Counted from the first letter of the stretch, positions 4,177 to 45,918 are shown. The stretch is DNA of 64,000 nt from a virus (IMGVR_UViG_2630968876_000001:1-64000); one strand, 5' to 3'. Program-made: numbers and translations. The notes: generated from the letters alone by a model not told the origin.

Positions 4177-5208
4177 TCATTCTCCGTCGAGAATCCCGGA
4201 CATTTTGCCTTTCTGGCTTTCAGAGCGGCGCAGGTAGCGCATAACGGTTTTCGGGTCAGTCCAGGTGCCTTCCTGCATGATCTGCGTGATGGTCGCGTCG
4301 CGCTCCGCCATATCCATCGCCGCGCCCACGCGCGCACTATGGCCGGACCATTTCGTGTAGCGCCCTTTATTGTCTTTAACCGGATCTTTACCCAGCAAAT
4401 CCCACGCATCTTTGAAAATCTTCTCCGTGGCCGGGGCGCTCATGGGCTTTTCCGACACGCCGGCCGTGTTGTTGTGGCGGACGGGACCGAATATCACGGC
4501 GTCGGGGCAGTTAATCAGCCCGGATACGTCCAGCCAGCGCAGCAGGTGGCCGGCGGCAGATTTGCTCAGGTGCTTTATCACGCCAGCGGCAGTCACCATC
4601 GTTTTTGTGTGGGTCAGGTTAACGATCACATGGCCGCTTTCGTCGATATCCAGATCGCGTACCCGGATGCGGCTCAGTTCAGACATACGGCACAGGGTGT
4701 TATAGGCCAGATACAGGAACGCCAGATTGCGCATATCGGTGAGTTTGTCAGACCGGCTCATGAGGTGCGACAGCAGCTGCAGATCCGAAAGCCGGAACGG
4801 TATGGCCTGTCCGGTTCGCTCGCCGCCCACCACGGCCTCGCGCTTGATGCGCTTCATGGCGCGCTGTACGTCCACGTTCAGCAGCAGCTGCGGCAGGCCG
4901 CACTGTTTGCAGAGCATGTTCATCATGGCGTAGTGCTTTTCGATCGTGCTCGATGCAAGCCCGCTTTCCGCCATAGACAGAAAGTAAATGCGGGCCAGCT
5001 CCGGATCGATTGGCAGATATGACAGGCCACGCGCATTGCACCACGTCGCCCAGCGCCGGATCACCGAAAGCAGATCGCGGAATGTATTCTCAGAATATGC
5101 GGCTTTATCGGCAATAAAGCGGCGCAGGTTATTTGCGACGTCCTGCGGCGTCAGCGTGGTTAATTCCGCCGGAATCACGCTGCTTTTAATTTCCGCTAAA
5201 TGTCTCAT
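4177..5208 (-). CDS. cre: Cre-like tyrosine site-specific recombinase
   Basis: Alignable by eye to P1 Cre along its length: LLSVIRRWATWC vs LLSVCRSWAAWC; RMSELSRIRVRD vs RIAEIARIRVKD; WSGHSARVGAAMDMA vs WSGHSARVGAARDMA; a VMRYLRR Tyr nucleophile region; ...LDGE C-terminus vs LEDGD. Confidence 0.92.
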   Translation of the reverse strand: MRHLAEIKSSVIPAELTTLTPQDVANNLRRFIADKAAYSENTFRDLLSVIRRWATWCNARGLSYLPIDPELARIYFLSMAESGLASSTIEKHYAMMNMLCKQCGLPQLLLNVDVQRAMKRIKREAVVGGERTGQAIPFRLSDLQLLSHLMSRSDKLTDMRNLAFLYLAYNTLCRMSELSRIRVRDLDIDESGHVIVNLTHTKTMVTAAGVIKHLSKSAAGHLLRWLDVSGLINCPDAVIFGPVRHNNTAGVSEKPMSAPATEKIFKDAWDLLGKDPVKDNKGRYTKWSGHSARVGAAMDMAERDATITQIMQEGTWTDPKTVMRYLRRSESQKGKMSGILDGE

Positions 5209-5361: not shown

Positions 5362-5392
5362 CTGATCATTTGATCATCCAACTACTGATCAA
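5362..5392. promoter_or_regulatory. cluster of three TGATCA (GATC/Dam) sites in the cre upstream region
   Basis: aacTGATCAttTGATCAtccaactacTGATCAag, between the lox-like site and the cre start. P1 cre promoters are known to be Dam-sensitive. Confidence 0.3.
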
Positions 5393-5409
5393 GCATACAT
5401 GAAAGCTAT

Positions 5410-5443
5410 CAAACTTTATATAATGGGTATTATTTAAAGTTTC
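5410..5443. promoter_or_regulatory. lox: lox-like recombination site (13-bp inverted arms flanking an 8-bp spacer)
   Basis: CAAACTTTATATA-ATGGGTAT-TATTTAAAGTTTC. Arms are inverted repeats (11/13) and resemble the loxP arms ATAACTTCGTATA / TATACGAAGTTAT. The site lies ~200 bp upstream of the Cre-like gene, as loxP does relative to cre in P1. Confidence 0.6.
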
Positions 5444-5653
5444 ATTTCCCGGCCAAAAACAGGCGCGGCGCGTGCTGAAGCGTCAGAAAAGTGTAAAATT
5501 TAGAATCCGGGAGGTTTTTCCGCGTGATCGGTCTCAGGGCTTCATATATGATCATCTGGCAGTCTGGTTTGTTACTTCGGGTTATAGTTCTGACTCGTAA
5601 CATTGCAGGTAACATAAAGCGTAACGGTGGCGATAACACCTGTGAGAGACATG

Positions 5654-5804: not shown

Positions 5805-6893
5805 TTGGAACACATTATGCCTAAGTTTAGCGACGTAGAATTTGAACAAAGCTATAAACATTTCCTGCAGGTTCAGCGTGAATGGTTCGGCCTCATTACA
5901 CCTCTAATCGTGTACTCAGAGGAAAACGCCAATGGCGAAGATGCACGCCCGATTGCCTTCACGAACGACAAAAAGATTCTGGACCGCGCACAGCACCTGA
6001 TTACCGAATGGCAGCGCTTTGCAGACCTGGCGGACGCCAAGCGCGCAGAGACCCAGGCTAAAACGCTGGCCGTCCATATCTCGTGCTACTCGCCGGTACC
6101 GACGATCATGGTAAACCCGCGCAAGGTAATAGTAACCCGTTTTCCCGGAACGTCATCAGGCAAAGCCACCCGTGAGAGCATTCTGAACCGCTATCACCAG
6201 CAGCTGCGTAAGCTGGATAAGGTTCCTTTTGCTGCCGGCGCTATCCTCTCACTGAAAGAGGAAATGAAGGCCTTTGAAAACGCACCGGAAGGGGCGCTTT
6301 ACCGCCTGCGCATGAGCAACTACTTCGATACGCAGGTTATGGCGCGGTTTGACAGCCCGAACGATGAAAGAAACGTGGATAACTACCGTTACGGCGCTCA
6401 CGGCATGCTGATTTACAGCGAGTACATGGATCTTAAAACGGATTTCACGGCAAACCTGAATCCCTCCAGCGGTGCAGTATCAGTATTTGACCTGATAAAG
6501 CCGCTGCCATGCGCCGTGCTGCCGTCCGCCACTGTTTACCTGATGGACGACGTGGACGCCGCCAAGCTCCACCACAAGCAGATTTACGTCATTGAGACGG
6601 CTATCTACCAGCGCGAACGCCTGTTTAAAAAGCGCAGCGAGGCGCTGATGTTGCGCTCCAGCACGCAGGAACAGGCGCAGAAAGCGCAGGAGAAGATTAA
6701 AGCTGGCGCAGAAGCGGTTGCTGAACTGAATGACATGGATCGTGAACTGATGAACATGAAAACAGCGGCCGGCGACACTGAATTGCTGACCGTGCCGGAA
6801 ATGCGCGCGCGTTATGCAAATGAGTTTGGTCGCCGCAGTGGCCATACTCTGCAGCAGCTGGTGGAGCGTGCGCAGAAGCTCAGAAAGGTATAA
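5805..6893 (+). CDS. c1: C1-like immunity repressor (longer than P1 C1)
   Basis: Local similarity to P1 C1: YSPVPTIMVNPRKV vs YPVPNILRGVRKV; YRLRMSNYFDTQVMARF vs FRMRVHGFSETMLRVH. Position between the lox/cre and pacB-like genes on the opposite strand, as in P1. Confidence 0.65.
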   Translation: MEHIMPKFSDVEFEQSYKHFLQVQREWFGLITPLIVYSEENANGEDARPIAFTNDKKILDRAQHLITEWQRFADLADAKRAETQAKTLAVHISCYSPVPTIMVNPRKVIVTRFPGTSSGKATRESILNRYHQQLRKLDKVPFAAGAILSLKEEMKAFENAPEGALYRLRMSNYFDTQVMARFDSPNDERNVDNYRYGAHGMLIYSEYMDLKTDFTANLNPSSGAVSVFDLIKPLPCAVLPSATVYLMDDVDAAKLHHKQIYVIETAIYQRERLFKKRSEALMLRSSTQEQAQKAQEKIKAGAEAVAELNDMDRELMNMKTAAGDTELLTVPEMRARYANEFGRRSGHTLQQLVERAQKLRKV

Positions 6894-6947: not shown

Positions 6948-8459
6948 TCACGCCAGCAGCGCATCCAGCTCCTCCAGCTCTTTGAGTTTGCTCTCCGCAA
7001 AGTCTGCCATGCCTTCGTCAATCTCTGCCTCTGCCGGACGGTAACCCGTCAGGAAGATAAAGCAGTACGTGTCCCAGCGGTCAGGCGACTTGATGTTGAG
7101 TTTCTGGCGCATCTGAGGCTTCGGCACCATCATGATCCGCCCCATTTCATCCATGTAATACGGTATCTTCGATCCCTGCTCTGCCGTGTGCTGAGAGGCG
7201 TCTATGCGCATCCTGCCGGACCGGACAGCATCAGCGGCCATGATGTTCGCCCAGGCGCGCTGATTCTTGAAGCGCTCGCGCACCTTCTTACTGAACGGCG
7301 GTTGCCCCCAGCGGATATTGACCGCATTCACGCCCCGGCGCTCCAGCTGCTTCAGCGTGGCAGAGCCCACACCGTCACCATCGACGGCAATCGTGATCCC
7401 CGGATAGCGCTCCTGCGTACACTCGTTAGCGATGAAGTCACCGAAGGATATCGGGTCCATCGTGCCAGGCATTTCCACCAGCTTAAACGACACCACGCGC
7501 CGCGCATCGCCATGCCCGGACACCCTGCAGATGTTGAGTATCGACTTATCGCGCCCGTTACCGACGTCAGCGGTAGCCACCCAGCCCCAGCCTTTCTCCA
7601 GGTATACTTTGCGCCGCGCGGCACGATCGCACTCGTCACGCCCCAGCAGATAGCCGCTGATGTTGCGCGGGAAGCGCCCCAGCACCTTCACCATGTACTC
7701 CAGCGAGTCGCGCCCGCCATACTCCAGCAGCTTTTCCCTGATGAATTTCAGAGTAACGTGCGGCGCCTCCTCAGAATTAAGGACAATGGCATTCCAGATC
7801 CCGTCCGGGTTATCGGGGTTACGGGCTAACGAATGGTGCGAGTCATAGAAATAGCCGCTTGGCCGCGTAGGCTGCGACATCATCAGCATGCGGTTATCGG
7901 TCTCTGTCAGCGCACCACGCATGATAGCGATCGCTTTATCAGAGATACCCGACGCTTCATCGAGGATCAGCAGGATATGCGCGGCGTGCTCGCCGGCCAG
8001 TGCCTCTTCGTTACCGAGGCGGAAGCCCTTACAGAGCACTTCCCATATCCCCTTACGAGACTTCTCATAAAACATGGTGTCCGTGAGGGTGAAGTAGTTC
8101 TGCAGCCAGGGGTGACGTTTGGCGGCGTTAGCCCAGTAGGTTTTGACGTACTTGAATACGCCCGTTTTAACCTGCCCGATTTTGTTGGCCACGATGATTA
8201 CGCGCGCATCCGGGAACATGATCATGTAAATCAGCAGCATCATAGCCGTCAGGGATGATTTACCGGTACCGTGGCCGGACGTTACCGTAGTCTGGCTTCC
8301 GGTCTCCTGTACGGAGTTAAGTATCTCTTCCTGCTGCCAGGTGGGGATAAGGCCAAACAGCTCGACTACTGCCGTCGCCCAGTCATAGCGATAGCGGATC
8401 ACCATGTCGCGCCAGCGCGGATCGGTGGTGACGCTCCTGATGCGTTTTTTGCCGCTCAT
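6948..8459 (-). CDS. pacB: terminase large subunit (PacB-like)
   Basis: Walker A TSGHGTGKSS, Walker B LILDEASGI, and a C-terminal nuclease-like region. Size 503 aa vs P1 PacB 494 aa; overlaps the pacA-like stop. Confidence 0.88.
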   Translation of the reverse strand: MSGKKRIRSVTTDPRWRDMVIRYRYDWATAVVELFGLIPTWQQEEILNSVQETGSQTTVTSGHGTGKSSLTAMMLLIYMIMFPDARVIIVANKIGQVKTGVFKYVKTYWANAAKRHPWLQNYFTLTDTMFYEKSRKGIWEVLCKGFRLGNEEALAGEHAAHILLILDEASGISDKAIAIMRGALTETDNRMLMMSQPTRPSGYFYDSHHSLARNPDNPDGIWNAIVLNSEEAPHVTLKFIREKLLEYGGRDSLEYMVKVLGRFPRNISGYLLGRDECDRAARRKVYLEKGWGWVATADVGNGRDKSILNICRVSGHGDARRVVSFKLVEMPGTMDPISFGDFIANECTQERYPGITIAVDGDGVGSATLKQLERRGVNAVNIRWGQPPFSKKVRERFKNQRAWANIMAADAVRSGRMRIDASQHTAEQGSKIPYYMDEMGRIMMVPKPQMRQKLNIKSPDRWDTYCFIFLTGYRPAEAEIDEGMADFAESKLKELEELDALLA

Positions 8460-9793
8460 TCTGCGCCATCCCTGTCTTTCATAACGGATAGCATATCGGT
8501 CATAACGGATTCATCGTCGGACATAACGGATTCATCGTCGGACATGACGGATATCTCCGGCGGGATATCATCATCGTACAGGTCAGCAGTAGCCGCATAG
8601 TCAAAATTGCCGCTCAGATTGGCCTCTCCTGCGGTTTCGCCGGCGCGCATCTCTCCGTCTGCCTGGACGTCACCAAACCCGCCTTTGTCCACCAGCGCGG
8701 CAACCTCAGCACGACGCGTCTCAACAAAGGCAGCGGACGCGGCCTGTTGCCGGCGATACTCCTGCGCCTCCAGTTCCAGCTCCGCCTCGCTGACCTGGCC
8801 GCTTTCATCTACCGGCGGCTCAGCGTTCTTGAGCTCGTTTTCGAGACGTCTGGACAGAGACTCAGGCAGTTTGATGCCGTGGCGCTCGATGTACTCTGCC
8901 GTCTGCAGCAGATCCCAGTCCTCCGCCTCGCGCAGCTGGTAGGCGCGGCTGATAACCTCGCCGGCGTTATGCGTCAGCGCATGCTTCTCATTGTCGCGCC
9001 GGTTCTTATCGGTACTGCCGGCGATCGCTGCTACCCGCGTGGCGTGGTCATTAACCAGATAGCCGACCTCAATCATCAGCTTGGTCATTTTCAGGATAGG
9101 GTGTGGTCCGCCGCCGCCGTCCTCCTCCTCCCCCTTCTTTCTGCCGCTGGCCATGTTGTCGGCCTCAAGCTCAAACAGTTCTACCGCACGCGCCGTGGTG
9201 CGCTTGAGCATGTCCATGTGCGCCAGCGAGTCAAACAGCGCTGTCATGGCGCTGGCTTCCAGCCCCTCGCCCAGCACCTCTAACGCCGCTTCATAATCCT
9301 GCGGCCGCGGGTAAGCTCGCCGGTTGGCGACCAGCTTGGTTTCATGGCCTTCTTCAAAGGGTTTACCCTCGCCGCGGGGCTTGGCGGTGTGCTTCGGGCG
9401 CCCGTCACTTTGATCACCCTCATTTATGATCTTTTTGGCATGTGAAGCATTGGGCTTTTTCTTCCCGCCAGGCTGCGGCGCTGCGTCAGCGCGTGGTTCC
9501 AGCACCCCCTCCAAAGCCGCGCTGTGCCTGAGTTTGCGCCCGTTCCGGCGTATGGTGAGGTCGTCTTTTCTTGTGTGATCATTTTGATGATCAGAAGCGT
9601 GATCACCCGAATGATCATGATTGTGATCACCACTTTGATCACCCATCGCGGCCAGCGCTTTACCGTTCAGCTCCCGGCGGGCCGTGTTGAATGGCAGGTT
9701 GTAGTACTCGCAGTACTCTTTGACGGTTATCCCGCTCTCGGCCTTCTGCTCAATGAAAGCCCTTCTGTGTTCATCCCAGTTAACTTTGGACAT
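8456..9793 (-). CDS. pacA: terminase small subunit (PacA-like), with internal DH/SGDH repeat region encoded by the pac hexamer cluster
   Basis: N-terminal HTH-like MSKVNWDEHRRAFIEQKAESGITVKEYCEYYNLPFNTARRELNGK typical of TerS. Gene immediately upstream of TerL. Contains a TGATCA repeat cluster as in P1 pacA. Confidence 0.75.
   Translation of the reverse strand: MSKVNWDEHRRAFIEQKAESGITVKEYCEYYNLPFNTARRELNGKALAAMGDQSGDHNHDHSGDHASDHQNDHTRKDDLTIRRNGRKLRHSAALEGVLEPRADAAPQPGGKKKPNASHAKKIINEGDQSDGRPKHTAKPRGEGKPFEEGHETKLVANRRAYPRPQDYEAALEVLGEGLEASAMTALFDSLAHMDMLKRTTARAVELFELEADNMASGRKKGEEEDGGGGPHPILKMTKLMIEVGYLVNDHATRVAAIAGSTDKNRRDNEKHALTHNAGEVISRAYQLREAEDWDLLQTAEYIERHGIKLPESLSRRLENELKNAEPPVDESGQVSEAELELEAQEYRRQQAASAAFVETRRAEVAALVDKGGFGDVQADGEMRAGETAGEANLSGNFDYAATADLYDDDIPPEISVMSDDESVMSDDESVMTDMLSVMKDRDGAE
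8478..8565. repeat. about four tandem copies of a 21-bp unit (cataacggattcatcgtcgga) at the pacA 3' end / pacB start
   Basis: Two perfect and two degenerate copies. Encodes repeated SVMSDDE heptapeptides at the PacA-like C-terminus. Confidence 0.7.
9577..9642. repeat. pac: pac-site-like cluster of six TGATCA hexamers with exact 12-bp phasing
   Basis: GATC at 9577, 9589, 9601, 9613, 9625 and 9637. The P1 pac site is a cluster of Dam-methylated TGATCA/G hexamers inside the pacA 5' region. Confidence 0.6.
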
Positions 9794-9825
9794 GGTTTAT
9801 CGTTCAAATGAGGCCAATAAACCGG

Positions 9826-9858
9826 GATGGTAAGGAGTCTGTATTTTGCAGTGATCAC
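9826..9858 (-). promoter_or_regulatory. late-promoter-like conserved motif upstream of pacA, followed by two more 12-bp-spaced TGATCA hexamers
   Basis: ggtaaggagtctgtattttgcagTGATCAcaataaTGATCAc. The first half matches the GGTAAGGAGTYTGTAATTTGC family found upstream of five other minus-strand operons; ~45 bp from the pacA start. Confidence 0.4.
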
Positions 9859-9882
9859 AATAATGATCACGAAGCGCGCAAA

Positions 9883-9903
9883 CGCATCTGAATTTGTCAG
9901 ATG
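9883..9903. promoter_or_regulatory. palindromic operator-like site upstream of parM (candidate parC/ParR-binding or promoter operator)
   Basis: GCATCTGA-atttg-TCAGATGC: 8-bp inverted arms, ~75 bp upstream of the parM-like start. Confidence 0.35.
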
Positions 9904-9978
9904 CAGAGACACTTTTATAAAAAACTGTGTTATTTTTATGTCTCAATCGAAGTGCGAAATTAACCATTGGGTAAATAA

Positions 9979-11106
9979 ATGTCTAACAAGAAAGCAGTTT
10001 TAGTAGCAGTGGATGCTGGTTCCGGAAACGTGACTATCGCCTATGAGGAAAAAGGTCAGTGGGTCTCTCGTATCACGCCATCCCTCGTTGAAGTAGGCCA
10101 CCAGCAGTCTATTTCCAGCAACGCCTCCTCTATCTGGCTGACAGAAGGCGACTTTGGCAAAGAGACCGCATACACCGTCGTTAAAAAGGGCTTTACCGAC
10201 CTCTACGACACCTGCGACCCGGACTATCAGATCTCCGCGCCTCACCGCGTGCTGGTGCATGAATGCCTGAAACGCGCGGGTATCGTGGACTGCGACGTTA
10301 TTCTTGGTGAGACGCTGCCTATCGGGCAGTACTACAGCGGCAACGGCGTGATCAATCAGGCGCGCATTGATAAGAAAGTTGCCAGCCTCAAAAAGCCAGT
10401 ACGCAACTACAGCGACGACGTACAGCCAGCGCGCATTAAACACGTACAGGTATTCCCGGAAGCAATCCCGGCTATTCTGGCGGCTCAATCTGAGTTCCCG
10501 GAGCTGGAAGAAGAAGCGCAGACCATTCTGGTAGTGGATATTGGCCGCTTCACCTGTGATATCGCTATCGTGGATGAAGAACTGGTTCCAATCAAAAAGG
10601 CCAGCTTTGAGCATGGCATTCAGAAGATGATCAACCGCGTTCGCGTATTGCTGCAGGAGTTTGAAGTCACCTCTGGCCGCTCTTTTAATGCAGAAGAGAT
10701 CCCGCCAGGTGCAATCGACGACATTATCCGTCAGGGCTATATCGGCTCACGTCTGGAAGCAGCAAAAGCCAAGCGTATCGACGTCACCAGCGTAATTAAT
10801 CAGGCCGCAGGCGAGCTGGCAGCGGAAATCTGGCGCGACGTGCGCTCTCTGCTGCGTAACGCCATTGCGGTTGATGCAGTGCTGGTGGTAGGTGGCGGCG
10901 CTAACTATCTGGCTGGCCGTCAGGAAGGGCTGACCGACTTTACAGCGGGCTGGCATGATGTGGTCATGGTGCCGGAGAACCCGGAAGAGGCTAACGCACG
11001 CGGCGTATTCATTGCACTGATGGATGCAGAAGATGAATTGCGCGATATGGTAAAAGACGCCAGCAACGTCAGCGATATTACCAGTCGCGTCAGCGATAAA
11101 GGTTAA
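9979..11106 (+). CDS. parM: ParM/StbA-family actin-like plasmid segregation ATPase
   Basis: N-terminal phosphate-1 motif VLVAVDAGSGNVTIAY, phosphate-2 VDIGRFTCDIAIV, adenosine motif VLVVGGGANYLAG; 375 aa. Confidence 0.85.
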   Translation: MSNKKAVLVAVDAGSGNVTIAYEEKGQWVSRITPSLVEVGHQQSISSNASSIWLTEGDFGKETAYTVVKKGFTDLYDTCDPDYQISAPHRVLVHECLKRAGIVDCDVILGETLPIGQYYSGNGVINQARIDKKVASLKKPVRNYSDDVQPARIKHVQVFPEAIPAILAAQSEFPELEEEAQTILVVDIGRFTCDIAIVDEELVPIKKASFEHGIQKMINRVRVLLQEFEVTSGRSFNAEEIPPGAIDDIIRQGYIGSRLEAAKAKRIDVTSVINQAAGELAAEIWRDVRSLLRNAIAVDAVLVVGGGANYLAGRQEGLTDFTAGWHDVVMVPENPEEANARGVFIALMDAEDELRDMVKDASNVSDITSRVSDKG

Positions 11107-11710: not shown

Positions 11711-12118
11711 TCACATGAGCGGGGTGTTTTCTATCCTTCCCCGCATACACCTGTCCATTAGTTCCCTTGCCATCACGCATACAGAACGTAGCTCCATTTC
11801 CTTTGACTGGAGGCGGCGCTTCGTGGCGCTGGTAACAACCAGCGAATCGTAGTCAATGTCCGGGCGTCCGCGCGCTTTGAAGGTGTAGCCTTTTAACGCA
11901 TCCAGGCGGTACTGACGTGGATAAGCGTCAGGGTGTACGCAGCATTGCGCAAAAGGAGAGCGGACAAAAGAGCGCAGAATATTAGTGATGATACCGGGAT
12001 TGACTAATAAGTGCGGGTACTTTGCTTCCACCAGCCGGGTAACCTCTGCTACCGTCATATAATCACGATTGCGAACCAGCAGATCCGCCACCTCTATACT
12101 GCTCACCTTTTTGACCAT
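11711..12118 (-). CDS. hypothetical protein, 135 aa
   Basis: ORF with AT-rich upstream region containing tttaga motifs; no motif recognised. Confidence 0.4.
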   Translation of the reverse strand: MVKKVSSIEVADLLVRNRDYMTVAEVTRLVEAKYPHLLVNPGIITNILRSFVRSPFAQCCVHPDAYPRQYRLDALKGYTFKARGRPDIDYDSLVVTSATKRRLQSKEMELRSVCVMARELMDRCMRGRIENTPLM

Positions 12119-30931: not shown

Positions 30932-31324
30932 GGTGTGCTCCCTGTGCTTTGAGAAGCGTCACGACAGGAGGTTCCAATCTCCGGGTGGTGACGTTGACAG
31001 GGTTGGAACTACCGGTGCACAAGAAAACCGGCCTACCCGAAGGTAGCCCCGCCAACGCCACCATAGATACGCCCGGAATTTTCCGGACGTGGTAGCGCCG
31101 AAGGCACTGTGTGCCAGCTCTCATGCTTTTTCAGGGTTCCAATCCCGGCCACTGTTTTGCAGCGGCGCGCACACTATATCCGCCGCGCTGATAAATTCAA
31201 TATGTCTAATGTGAAATTATCCACTGGTCATTAGATCCACGCATGAATCAAGAAAAGTTACCTACGCAAATTACAACCTTCCTACCATCAGTCCGCGCAG
31301 GCAATCGCCAGCGCTGCCGCCGCT

Positions 31325-41315: not shown

Positions 41316-41359
41316 ATACCCCCCTTTGGTACCTGGTTATCAGGTGGCGAGAGGGTAAG

Positions 41360-41380
41360 CAGTCTGTAATTTAGAGAGGT
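41360..41380 (-). promoter_or_regulatory. late-promoter-like motif variant (gcagtCTGTAATTTAgag) ~50 bp upstream of the holin gene
   Basis: Degenerate member of the GGAGTTTGTAATTTGC family. Confidence 0.3.
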
Positions 41381-45861: not shown

Positions 45862-45897
45862 AAAAAAGCCTCTCAGAGTTAAGAGGCCAGAGGGTAA

Positions 45898-45918
45898 GGA
45901 GTTTGTAAAATCCGCAGG
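45898..45918 (-). promoter_or_regulatory. late-promoter-like motif (GGAGTTTGTAAAATCCGC) ~40 bp upstream of the tail-fiber operon, next to a hairpin (45869-45891)
   Basis: Motif family member; hairpin gcctct-cagagtta-agaggc just upstream suggests a terminator/promoter junction. Confidence 0.35.

Follow-up and report, generated by a model that had tools for sequence, protein, structure and literature searches.

A phased array of Dam-site hexamers in a divergent pacA gene of a Pantoea phage-plasmid as a probable P1-type pac site

The stretch of viral DNA analyzed in this study (IMGVR_UViG_2630968876_000001:1-64000; 64,000 nucleotides, hereafter referred to as the window) contains six TGATCA hexamers at exact 12-bp spacing within the 5′ part of a homologue of pacA, the gene for the small (recognition) subunit of the pacase. 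We consider it very likely that this array forms the recognition portion of a pac site of the P1 type, carried by a Pantoea phage-plasmid related to P1 and D6. This view is based on the homology of PacA, the positional conservation of the hexamers throughout the family, the constraint on synonymous sites, and the accompanying genes for PacB, Lpa, and a Dmt of the Dam family. On these same grounds we uphold the proposal, made in a preliminary description of the window from its sequence alone, that the pacA homologue contains such a site in its 5′ part.

Hexamer clusters in the pacA homologue

The properties of P1 used for comparison were taken from the GenBank annotation AF234172 and from the literature (PMC10028697). 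The P1 pac site comprises 161 bp with seven TGATCA/G Dam hexamers in the arrangement HEX4 + HEX3, and its cleavage is gated by methylation, with hemimethylated DNA presumably bound and fully methylated DNA cleaved (PMC10028697). In the window, multiple GATC-containing hexamers are likewise located in the 5′ part of pacA, and a further pair lies upstream of the gene:

8456..9793, minus strand: pacA homologue, 445 amino acids, small (recognition) subunit of the pacase (phrog_1711 terminase, E 4.9e-138)
9576..9641: left (major) cluster, six TGATCA at exact 12-bp spacing (pacA codons 51-73, +153..+213)
9433..9575: spacer between the intragenic clusters, predicted cleavage region, GC-rich, 149 bp between the flanking GATCs
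9411..9432: right (minor) cluster, TGATCA at 9411-9416 and, on the gene strand, AGATCA at 9427-9432, 16 bp apart (+362/+378)
9852..9869: non-coding TGATCA pair with starts at 9852 and 9864, 12 bp apart (-75/-63 from the pacA ATG)

The hexamers of the left cluster start at 9576, 9588, 9600, 9612, 9624, and 9636, in full agreement with the GATC positions (9577 to 9637) and the exact 12-bp spacing described before. On the minus strand they are read as xxT-GAT-CAx codons that specify DQ or DH (PacA residues 52-73, DQSGDHNHDHSGDHASDHQNDH). The additional GATCs noticed on either side, at 9853, 9865, and 9428, are present as well. The one at 9428 (TGATCT on the plus strand and AGATCA on the gene strand) is not isolated as had been assumed, but is accompanied by a full TGATCA at 9411-9416 that falls slightly beyond the interval described before and had been missed. 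Two hexamer clusters lie inside the gene, and the equivalent of the second P1 cluster is the one at 9411-9432 and not the upstream pair. Altogether, the eight intragenic elements consist of seven TGATCA and one AGATCA, and two further TGATCA are located upstream of pacA.

The window contains 31 TGATCA as compared to 11.9 ± 3.2 in shuffled sequences, and none of 100 shuffles reached 31. Only three TGATCA clusters occur on the whole 87-kb plasmid to which the window belongs, and the array is the sole place on this plasmid with at least five GATC per 100 bp. The excess over the shuffles and the small number of clusters show that the array is not due to chance. It is not a simple tandem duplication either, because all five 6-bp spacers differ from each other (TTTTGA, GAAGCG, CCCGAA, TGATTG, and CCACTT) and the array was not called by Tandem Repeats Finder at a minimum score of 30.

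The encoded protein is a member of the PacA family (phrog_1711), as indicated by the full-length match to the family profile (residues 4-422) and an N-terminal helix-turn-helix (HTH) domain of the terminase small subunit type. Its N-terminus also matches the terminase small subunit families phrog_370 (residues 1-126) and phrog_51 (residues 1-62). A tblastn search of phage records retrieved only pacA genes of the P1, P7, and D6 types and their relatives, with local identities of ~25% to P1 PacA over residues 184-380 and ~37% to D6 PacA in the matched parts. No Pfam family and no relative in a PDB sequence search were found for this protein. It consists of the N-terminal HTH, a linker that is predicted to be disordered and holds both hexamer clusters, and a helical C-terminal domain. 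In the AlphaFold2 model (mean predicted local distance difference test score, pLDDT, 66.7), a three-helix N-terminal domain spans residues 6-53 (pLDDT ~80) and the helical C-terminal domain residues 164-371, and the pLDDT falls below 50 at residues 54-78 and 98-129, which are the segments in whose coding DNA the two hexamer clusters fall.

Evidence for selection on the DNA motif

The codon usage of the array is strongly biased given the encoded peptide (P ~2.7e-7). Within the array, GAT is the only Asp codon and T is the last base of every codon before it, and the intervening residues vary; outside the array, GAT accounts for 45% of the Asp codons and T for 18% of the third positions. All six D-[H/Q] dipeptides of the array are encoded by TGATCA, as compared to 4 of 28 elsewhere in the window.

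In a comparison of 20 distinct sequences from the Pantoea clade (82-100% PacA identity), hexamers 2-6 were invariant in 19 of the 20 sequences and the spacers changed, and the right-cluster hexamers (+362/+378) were kept in nearly all of them. Diversity at third codon positions averaged 0.228 over pacA and was lowest in the entire gene at the array codons 55-72 (0.016-0.032). A second minimum (0.040-0.048) was found at codons 109-126 (9469-9416), which correspond to the following feature:

9416..9469: block of low synonymous variation, nearly invariant in the clade, comprising the right cluster and ~40 bp 5′ of it in gene direction

Both intragenic clusters, six and two hexamers separated by 149 bp, are thus synonymously constrained and also match P1 in position. 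Moreover, hexamers occur in the Ile (ATC) reading frame, both in P1 and at 9427 in the window, which argues that the DNA motif is kept rather than the DH dipeptide. Taken together, codon choice and diversity indicate that the array is under selection at the DNA level and not at the protein level. The suggested coupling between the DNA site and the protein repeat found no support: since the DNA of the site is translated into a PacA linker with predicted disorder, the DH/DQ repeat appears to be a side effect of reading the DNA motif in frame, and not a functional coupling. Judging from the structural model, the motif sits where the protein tolerates it.

Conservation across pacA lineages and specificity of the signature

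For a survey of the family, 76 distinct pacA loci were collected from GTDB genomes, IMG/VR, and GenBank, and their GATC hexamers were mapped; these loci covered 24-100% PacA identity and included P1. Nearly every lineage had a left cluster at +150..+250 and a right one at +315..+400, while the number and the exact places of the hexamers turned over between lineages. Such turnover at retained cluster positions fits a conserved site that is composed of redundant elements. The window layout was also found in 22 further metagenome contigs, some of which lacked the upstream pair. The 12-bp spacing, whose strict phasing had been pointed out as notable, is not specific to the window element but turned out to be the commonest hexamer spacing family-wide, P1 included (29 of 54 in coding clusters; 12 of 25, range 11-15, in non-coding clusters). 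Because the non-coding clusters show the same period, it is not merely a codon effect.

When IMG/VR was searched for runs of four TGATCA in exact 12-bp phase, 53 contigs were obtained and assigned as follows:

21 contigs: arrays in PacA homologues, spacers mostly or entirely unlike
1 contig: array in a phrog_370 small terminase (L112, E 6.8e-48), unlike spacers
1 contig: array in a small Xis-like HTH open reading frame (L103), unlike spacers
2 contigs: arrays in an acidic GDQ-repeat protein of one family (L130/L137), unlike spacers
28 contigs: arrays without a PacA match, tandem repeats with identical or near-identical spacers, many in metagenome-assembled genomes of giant viruses

Hence, phased arrays with unlike spacers are found in IMG/VR almost only in PacA-type terminase genes. 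Among the 21 contigs is a divergent PacA homologue (L106) with six hexamers right after the HTH. The phrog_370 small terminase (L112:8115-8966, minus strand; 283 amino acids) has a PacA-like N-terminal HTH and carries four to five TGATCA at 12-bp phase in its linker (8614-8655). Since this terminase carries a phased array, the pac design reaches beyond the PacA family proper.

The upstream pair and a candidate late promoter

Downstream of the upstream hexamer pair, we identified a motif that resembles the late promoters of P1 in its layout of a -22 box, four nucleotides, and TAnnnT:

9827..9845, minus strand: candidate Lpa-type late promoter of pacA, AATACAGACTCCTTACCAT, -10 = TACCAT, 6 bp downstream of the second upstream hexamer

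The 19-bp consensus AWTACAGACTNCTTACCMT has four matches in the window (9827-9845, minus strand; 31270-31288, plus strand; 41352-41370, minus strand; 45891-45909, minus strand) as compared to 0.04 expected. All four are intergenic and lie directly upstream of open reading frames in the same orientation, and the copy at 41352 comes after a terminator-like hairpin. The P1 late-promoter consensus (AAGTKAYTW-N4-TAnnnT) had no match in the window, and a scan of 9300-10050 for sigma-70 promoters and terminators found nothing. We regard the 19-mer as the probable late promoter, dependent on Lpa, of the lineage to which the window belongs.

No hexamers were found near the other three copies of the 19-mer, which indicates that the upstream pair is specific to pacA. 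The adjacency of a hexamer cluster and, downstream of it, the promoter motif was also observed in lineages at 44-49% PacA identity, and many lineages other than P1 possess a non-coding cluster of two to five hexamers at -126..-54. In the Pantoea relatives, conservation begins exactly at the first upstream hexamer (-76), with unrelated sequence beyond it towards parM. The preliminary description implied that the upstream pair is one arm of the pac site. The pair is located outside pacA, is absent from P1, and is missing in some close relatives, so that its role in pac is uncertain. Its function is probably accessory, and it may serve as an additional arm for pacase binding or control the promoter. 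A more specific scenario, which we put forward only tentatively and consider rather doubtful, is that the upstream cluster serves as a third pacase- or Dam-responsive element that would couple pacase transcription to the methylation or occupancy of pac, with the near-12-bp period being the subunit pitch of a DNA-wrapping PacA oligomer. If true, this coupling would constitute a feedback loop undescribed for P1.

Two further ideas on the upstream pair were discarded. Its exact 12-bp register with the array (216 = 18 x 12) was judged coincidental, as it is lost in other lineages and interrupted by a 1-bp indel in L070. A function as part of the ParM centromere was rejected, because the sequence between the pair and parM varies in relatives, in contrast to the pair, which is conserved along with pacA. 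Between the pair and parM lies a perfect 8-bp inverted repeat (GCATCTGA-N5-TCAGATGC; 9884-9904); it is shared with one close relative (L011) only and lacks conservation in the other members of the clade.

Predicted function and alternative explanations

By analogy with P1, we infer that a pacase of PacA and PacB would bind the TGATCA-type hexamers of the major (9576-9641, six) and minor (9411-9432, two) clusters, cut the spacer of roughly 145 bp between them, and then initiate headful packaging. Methylation of the GATCs by the host Dam or the element's own Dmt would gate this cleavage, so that hemimethylated sites would be bound and left uncut and fully methylated sites would be cut. The near-12-bp period probably mirrors the spacing of the HTH domains in an oligomeric small terminase around which the DNA would be wrapped.

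The GATC hexamers of P1 (AF234172) are located at +194, 201, 213, and 228 and at +324, 336, 347, and 375 from the pacA start, and the annotated integration host factor (IHF) site and primary cuts sit between these two groups. Projected onto the window via a protein alignment (A1), the left cluster of P1 falls at 9579-9537, the cuts at 9495-9486, and the right cluster at 9453-9405, which is the same order as in the window element; the projected cuts are a guide only, as the alignment has 25% identity and passes through a low-complexity linker. With this reservation, cleavage would probably take place between the clusters, near 9480-9500. The uncertainty of the projection is one of several points that weigh against a P1-type pac site. 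Another is the weakness of the right cluster, which contains one canonical hexamer and an AGATCA as compared to three or four hexamers in P1. The spacer also differs, being 149 bp long and GC-rich in the window and 96 bp long and AT-richer in P1. Furthermore, the IHF consensus WATCAANNNNTTR was not found in 9380-9900 with up to one mismatch, although this test is weak because P1's own annotated site fits the consensus poorly. Finally, phage D6 (L002) and its relative L087 are exceptions within the family in lacking a TGATCA array. As D6 is the closest characterized phage by PacA identity, the TGATCA motif is not obligatory in the PacA family. Both possess five GATCs (GGATCA, AGATCA, and TGATCC) at the same positions in +315..+446, and their best local alignments to the N-terminal region of the window PacA reach ~64% and ~56%. 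This set of GATCs may represent a different form of pac site.

Selection could instead act on the peptide, for instance to maintain a linker that binds metal and is rich in His/Asp or one of low complexity, and TGATCA would then be incidental. This is consistent with the use of one frame by all six hexamers to encode D-H or D-Q, and phased TGATCA arrays do arise from acidic GDQ repeats in the unrelated L130/L137 family. Yet this explanation appears highly improbable in view of the biased GAT and T-ending codons, the rarity of TGATCA-coded D-[H/Q] elsewhere in the window, the variable intervening residues in a region predicted to be disordered, and the occurrence of hexamers in the Ile frame as well as upstream, in non-coding DNA. 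We give practically no credence to a functionless, microsatellite-like 12-bp tandem duplication of recent origin. It would account for the exact period, and most of the 53 phased arrays from IMG/VR are of such a kind; against it stand the five unlike spacers, the missing Tandem Repeats Finder call, and the conservation of the number and position of the hexamers in relatives of ~83% DNA identity at the lowest synonymous diversity of the gene.

Two other explanations, which also seem unlikely, assign different roles to the hexamers. Closely spaced GATCs are good targets of SeqA, and the array could primarily be a Dam/SeqA regulatory element involved in the timing of pacA expression or in post-replication sequestration, with packaging starting elsewhere. 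The P1 annotation contains Dam sites that regulate the cre and kilA promoters, the upstream pair adjoins the candidate pacA late promoter, and another TGATCA cluster of the window (5363-5391) is situated in a promoter region. However, the intragenic clusters lie 150-380 bp inside the coding region and, throughout the family, coincide in position with the pac clusters defined by experiment in P1, and the hexamers are lacking at the three other copies of the late-promoter motif. Alternatively, the upstream pair (9852/9864) and the six-hexamer array could be the two arms of pac, with cleavage in the 216 bp that span the pacA start and the HTH-coding region. The conservation of upstream clusters in several lineages, their largest size where the left intragenic cluster is smallest (L026-L032, L044), and the onset of conservation precisely at the upstream hexamer would agree with such an arrangement. 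It conflicts with the lack of an upstream cluster in P1, in several lineages, and in some close relatives, with the occurrence of the right intragenic cluster in nearly all lineages, and with the second synonymous-diversity minimum, which covers 9416-9469 and not the HTH-coding region. A P1-type pac site with two intragenic clusters remains the reading that we favor.

Two observations concern DNA ends and breakpoints. In the 22 metagenome contigs, every match was more than 370 bp away from the ends of the retrieved DNA and rearrangements were not detected, so that these data are uninformative on packaging termini. One scaffold (L094; ENA ERZ28635721 scaffold_8713) carries a clean 1,439-bp deletion (8046-9484) that joins window position 9485 to 8045 and fuses PacA residue 103 to the inside of PacB without microhomology. 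Its endpoint at 9485 falls in the predicted cleavage region, where the P1 cuts project (9486-9495); this is a single case and a possible misassembly.

The phage-plasmid and its gene content

The window region 8400-10000 is 100% identical to plasmid pPSP-26e of Pantoea sp. PSNIH1 (CP009882.1), a circular molecule of 87,166 bp (window coordinate = CP009882.1 coordinate - 70). Four plasmids from Pantoea agglomerans and P. eucalypti are ~83-84% identical over the same region, and a search of phage records for near-identity to the window DNA gave no match. The element was identified as a P1/D6-related phage-plasmid because the pacA homologue is surrounded by pacB and genes for ParM, Lpa, a Cre-like recombinase, and a C1-type repressor:

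6948..8459, minus strand: pacB homologue, 503 amino acids, large terminase subunit (phrog_5902, E 4e-139; phrog_2, E 3.6e-38)
11711..12118, minus strand: lpa homologue, late promoter activating protein (Pfam PF25716 BPP1_LPA, E 1e-29)
9979-11106: ParM partition gene
4177-5208, minus strand: Cre-like tyrosine recombinase (integrase)
5805-6893: C1-type repressor

The pacB homologue, which carries a terminase annotation in CP009882.1, is located directly downstream of pacA and overlaps its stop codon. Related Pantoea plasmids carry the lpa homologue under the annotation "late promoter activating protein". Just beyond the window, a Dmt-like gene (CP009882 64559-67462; L093:4560-7463, minus strand) encodes a 967-amino-acid protein that combines a C5 cytosine methylase (PF00145, E 9e-32) with a D12-class Dam-type adenine methylase (PF02086, E 1e-49), the same architecture as in P1 Dmt. 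Its annotation as "multidrug DMT transporter permease" is evidently an error, which probably arose through the gene name dmt.

The intergenic region upstream of the gene for the Cre-like integrase contains three TGATCA within 29 bp (5363-5391) and a fourth at 5549-5554. Beside this cluster lies a lox-like inverted repeat (ATCAAACTTTATATAAT/ATTATTTAAAGTTTCAT; 5408-5445) with 17-nucleotide arms and a 4-nucleotide gap. The cre regulatory region of P1, next to loxP, likewise holds three Dam sites, so that the arrangement in the window may be an equivalent Dam-regulated promoter and recombination site.

At the C-terminus of PacA, a 21-bp tandem repeat (8480-8552, 3.5 copies) encodes SVMSDDE repeats, whose copy number varies among close relatives; the window has one copy more than P0001-P0004. 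A 95.6-kb plasmid recorded under Acinetobacter venetianus (CP060164.1) is 99.9% identical to pPSP-26e over the pacA region. This host is unexpected for an Enterobacterales phage-plasmid, and contamination or mislabelling is possible.

Implications

Our results indicate that the array is real and under strong selection; very probably it represents a pac site of the P1 type that belongs to a distant lineage of PacA. Its variant features are the perfect phase of the six hexamers, the 6 + 2 arrangement, and the additional pair upstream, next to the candidate late promoter. The packaging mechanism itself is not new; rather, a known mechanism is extended to a further lineage of phages. PacA proteins with as little as ~25% identity have retained the Dam-hexamer pac design of P1, which also appears in one phrog_370 small terminase. 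For the widespread phage-plasmids of Pantoea and other Enterobacterales, the analysis provides a concrete predicted pac site and cut region (~9480-9500). A defined pac site is a requirement for Pantoea transducing phagemids or for predicting the capacity for generalized transduction.

According to a survey of phage-plasmids, members of the P1-g2 subgroup encode only pacB homologues and lack pacA (PMC7969092). Divergent PacA proteins such as the one described here, which has no Pfam family and ~25% identity to P1 PacA, may have been missed in that survey. The window illustrates how divergent PacA homologues with pac-type arrays could escape similarity searches.

Comparison with known packaging systems

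Recognition sites embedded in the small-terminase gene and headful packaging are also features of P22 (gene 3), SPP1 (gene 1), and Sf6, in which the DNA is presumably wrapped by a small terminase that forms oligomers and possesses HTH domains. The pac sites of these phages are not built from Dam-site palindromes and have no known methylation gating.

Phage D6 is the closest characterized relative by PacA identity and shares the gene order pacA-pacB-c1 with the window, but its pacA contains GATCs only in contexts other than TGATCA.

The pac site of P1 reportedly was located within pacA in work by Sternberg and Coulby (1987-1990) and by Skorupski et al. (1992-1994). Hexamer number and spacing, which had been proposed as points of comparison, agree with P1 in the presence of two clusters and of 12-bp spacings, but P1 has 4 + 3(4) hexamers instead of 6 + 2 and is less regular, with spacings of 7, 12, and 15 bp in its left cluster in contrast to the perfect phase of the major cluster in the window. 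P1 also lacks the upstream hexamer pair, which in the window adjoins a candidate late promoter; its late-promoter motif, AAGTGACTT-N4-TAnnnT, is unlike that of the window, and the two PacA proteins are only ~25% identical. In addition, lpa is not adjacent to pacA in the window because a partition locus of the ParM/ParR type intervenes. The resemblance to P1 concerns the site as well as the genes. In both elements the known or predicted site occupies the 5′ third of the small-terminase gene, just past the part coding for the HTH, and consists of TGATCA Dam-site hexamers that are spaced ~12 bp apart, mostly encode Asp-His or Asp-Gln, and form two clusters around a spacer, in the company of pacB, lpa, and a Dmt-type Dam methylase.

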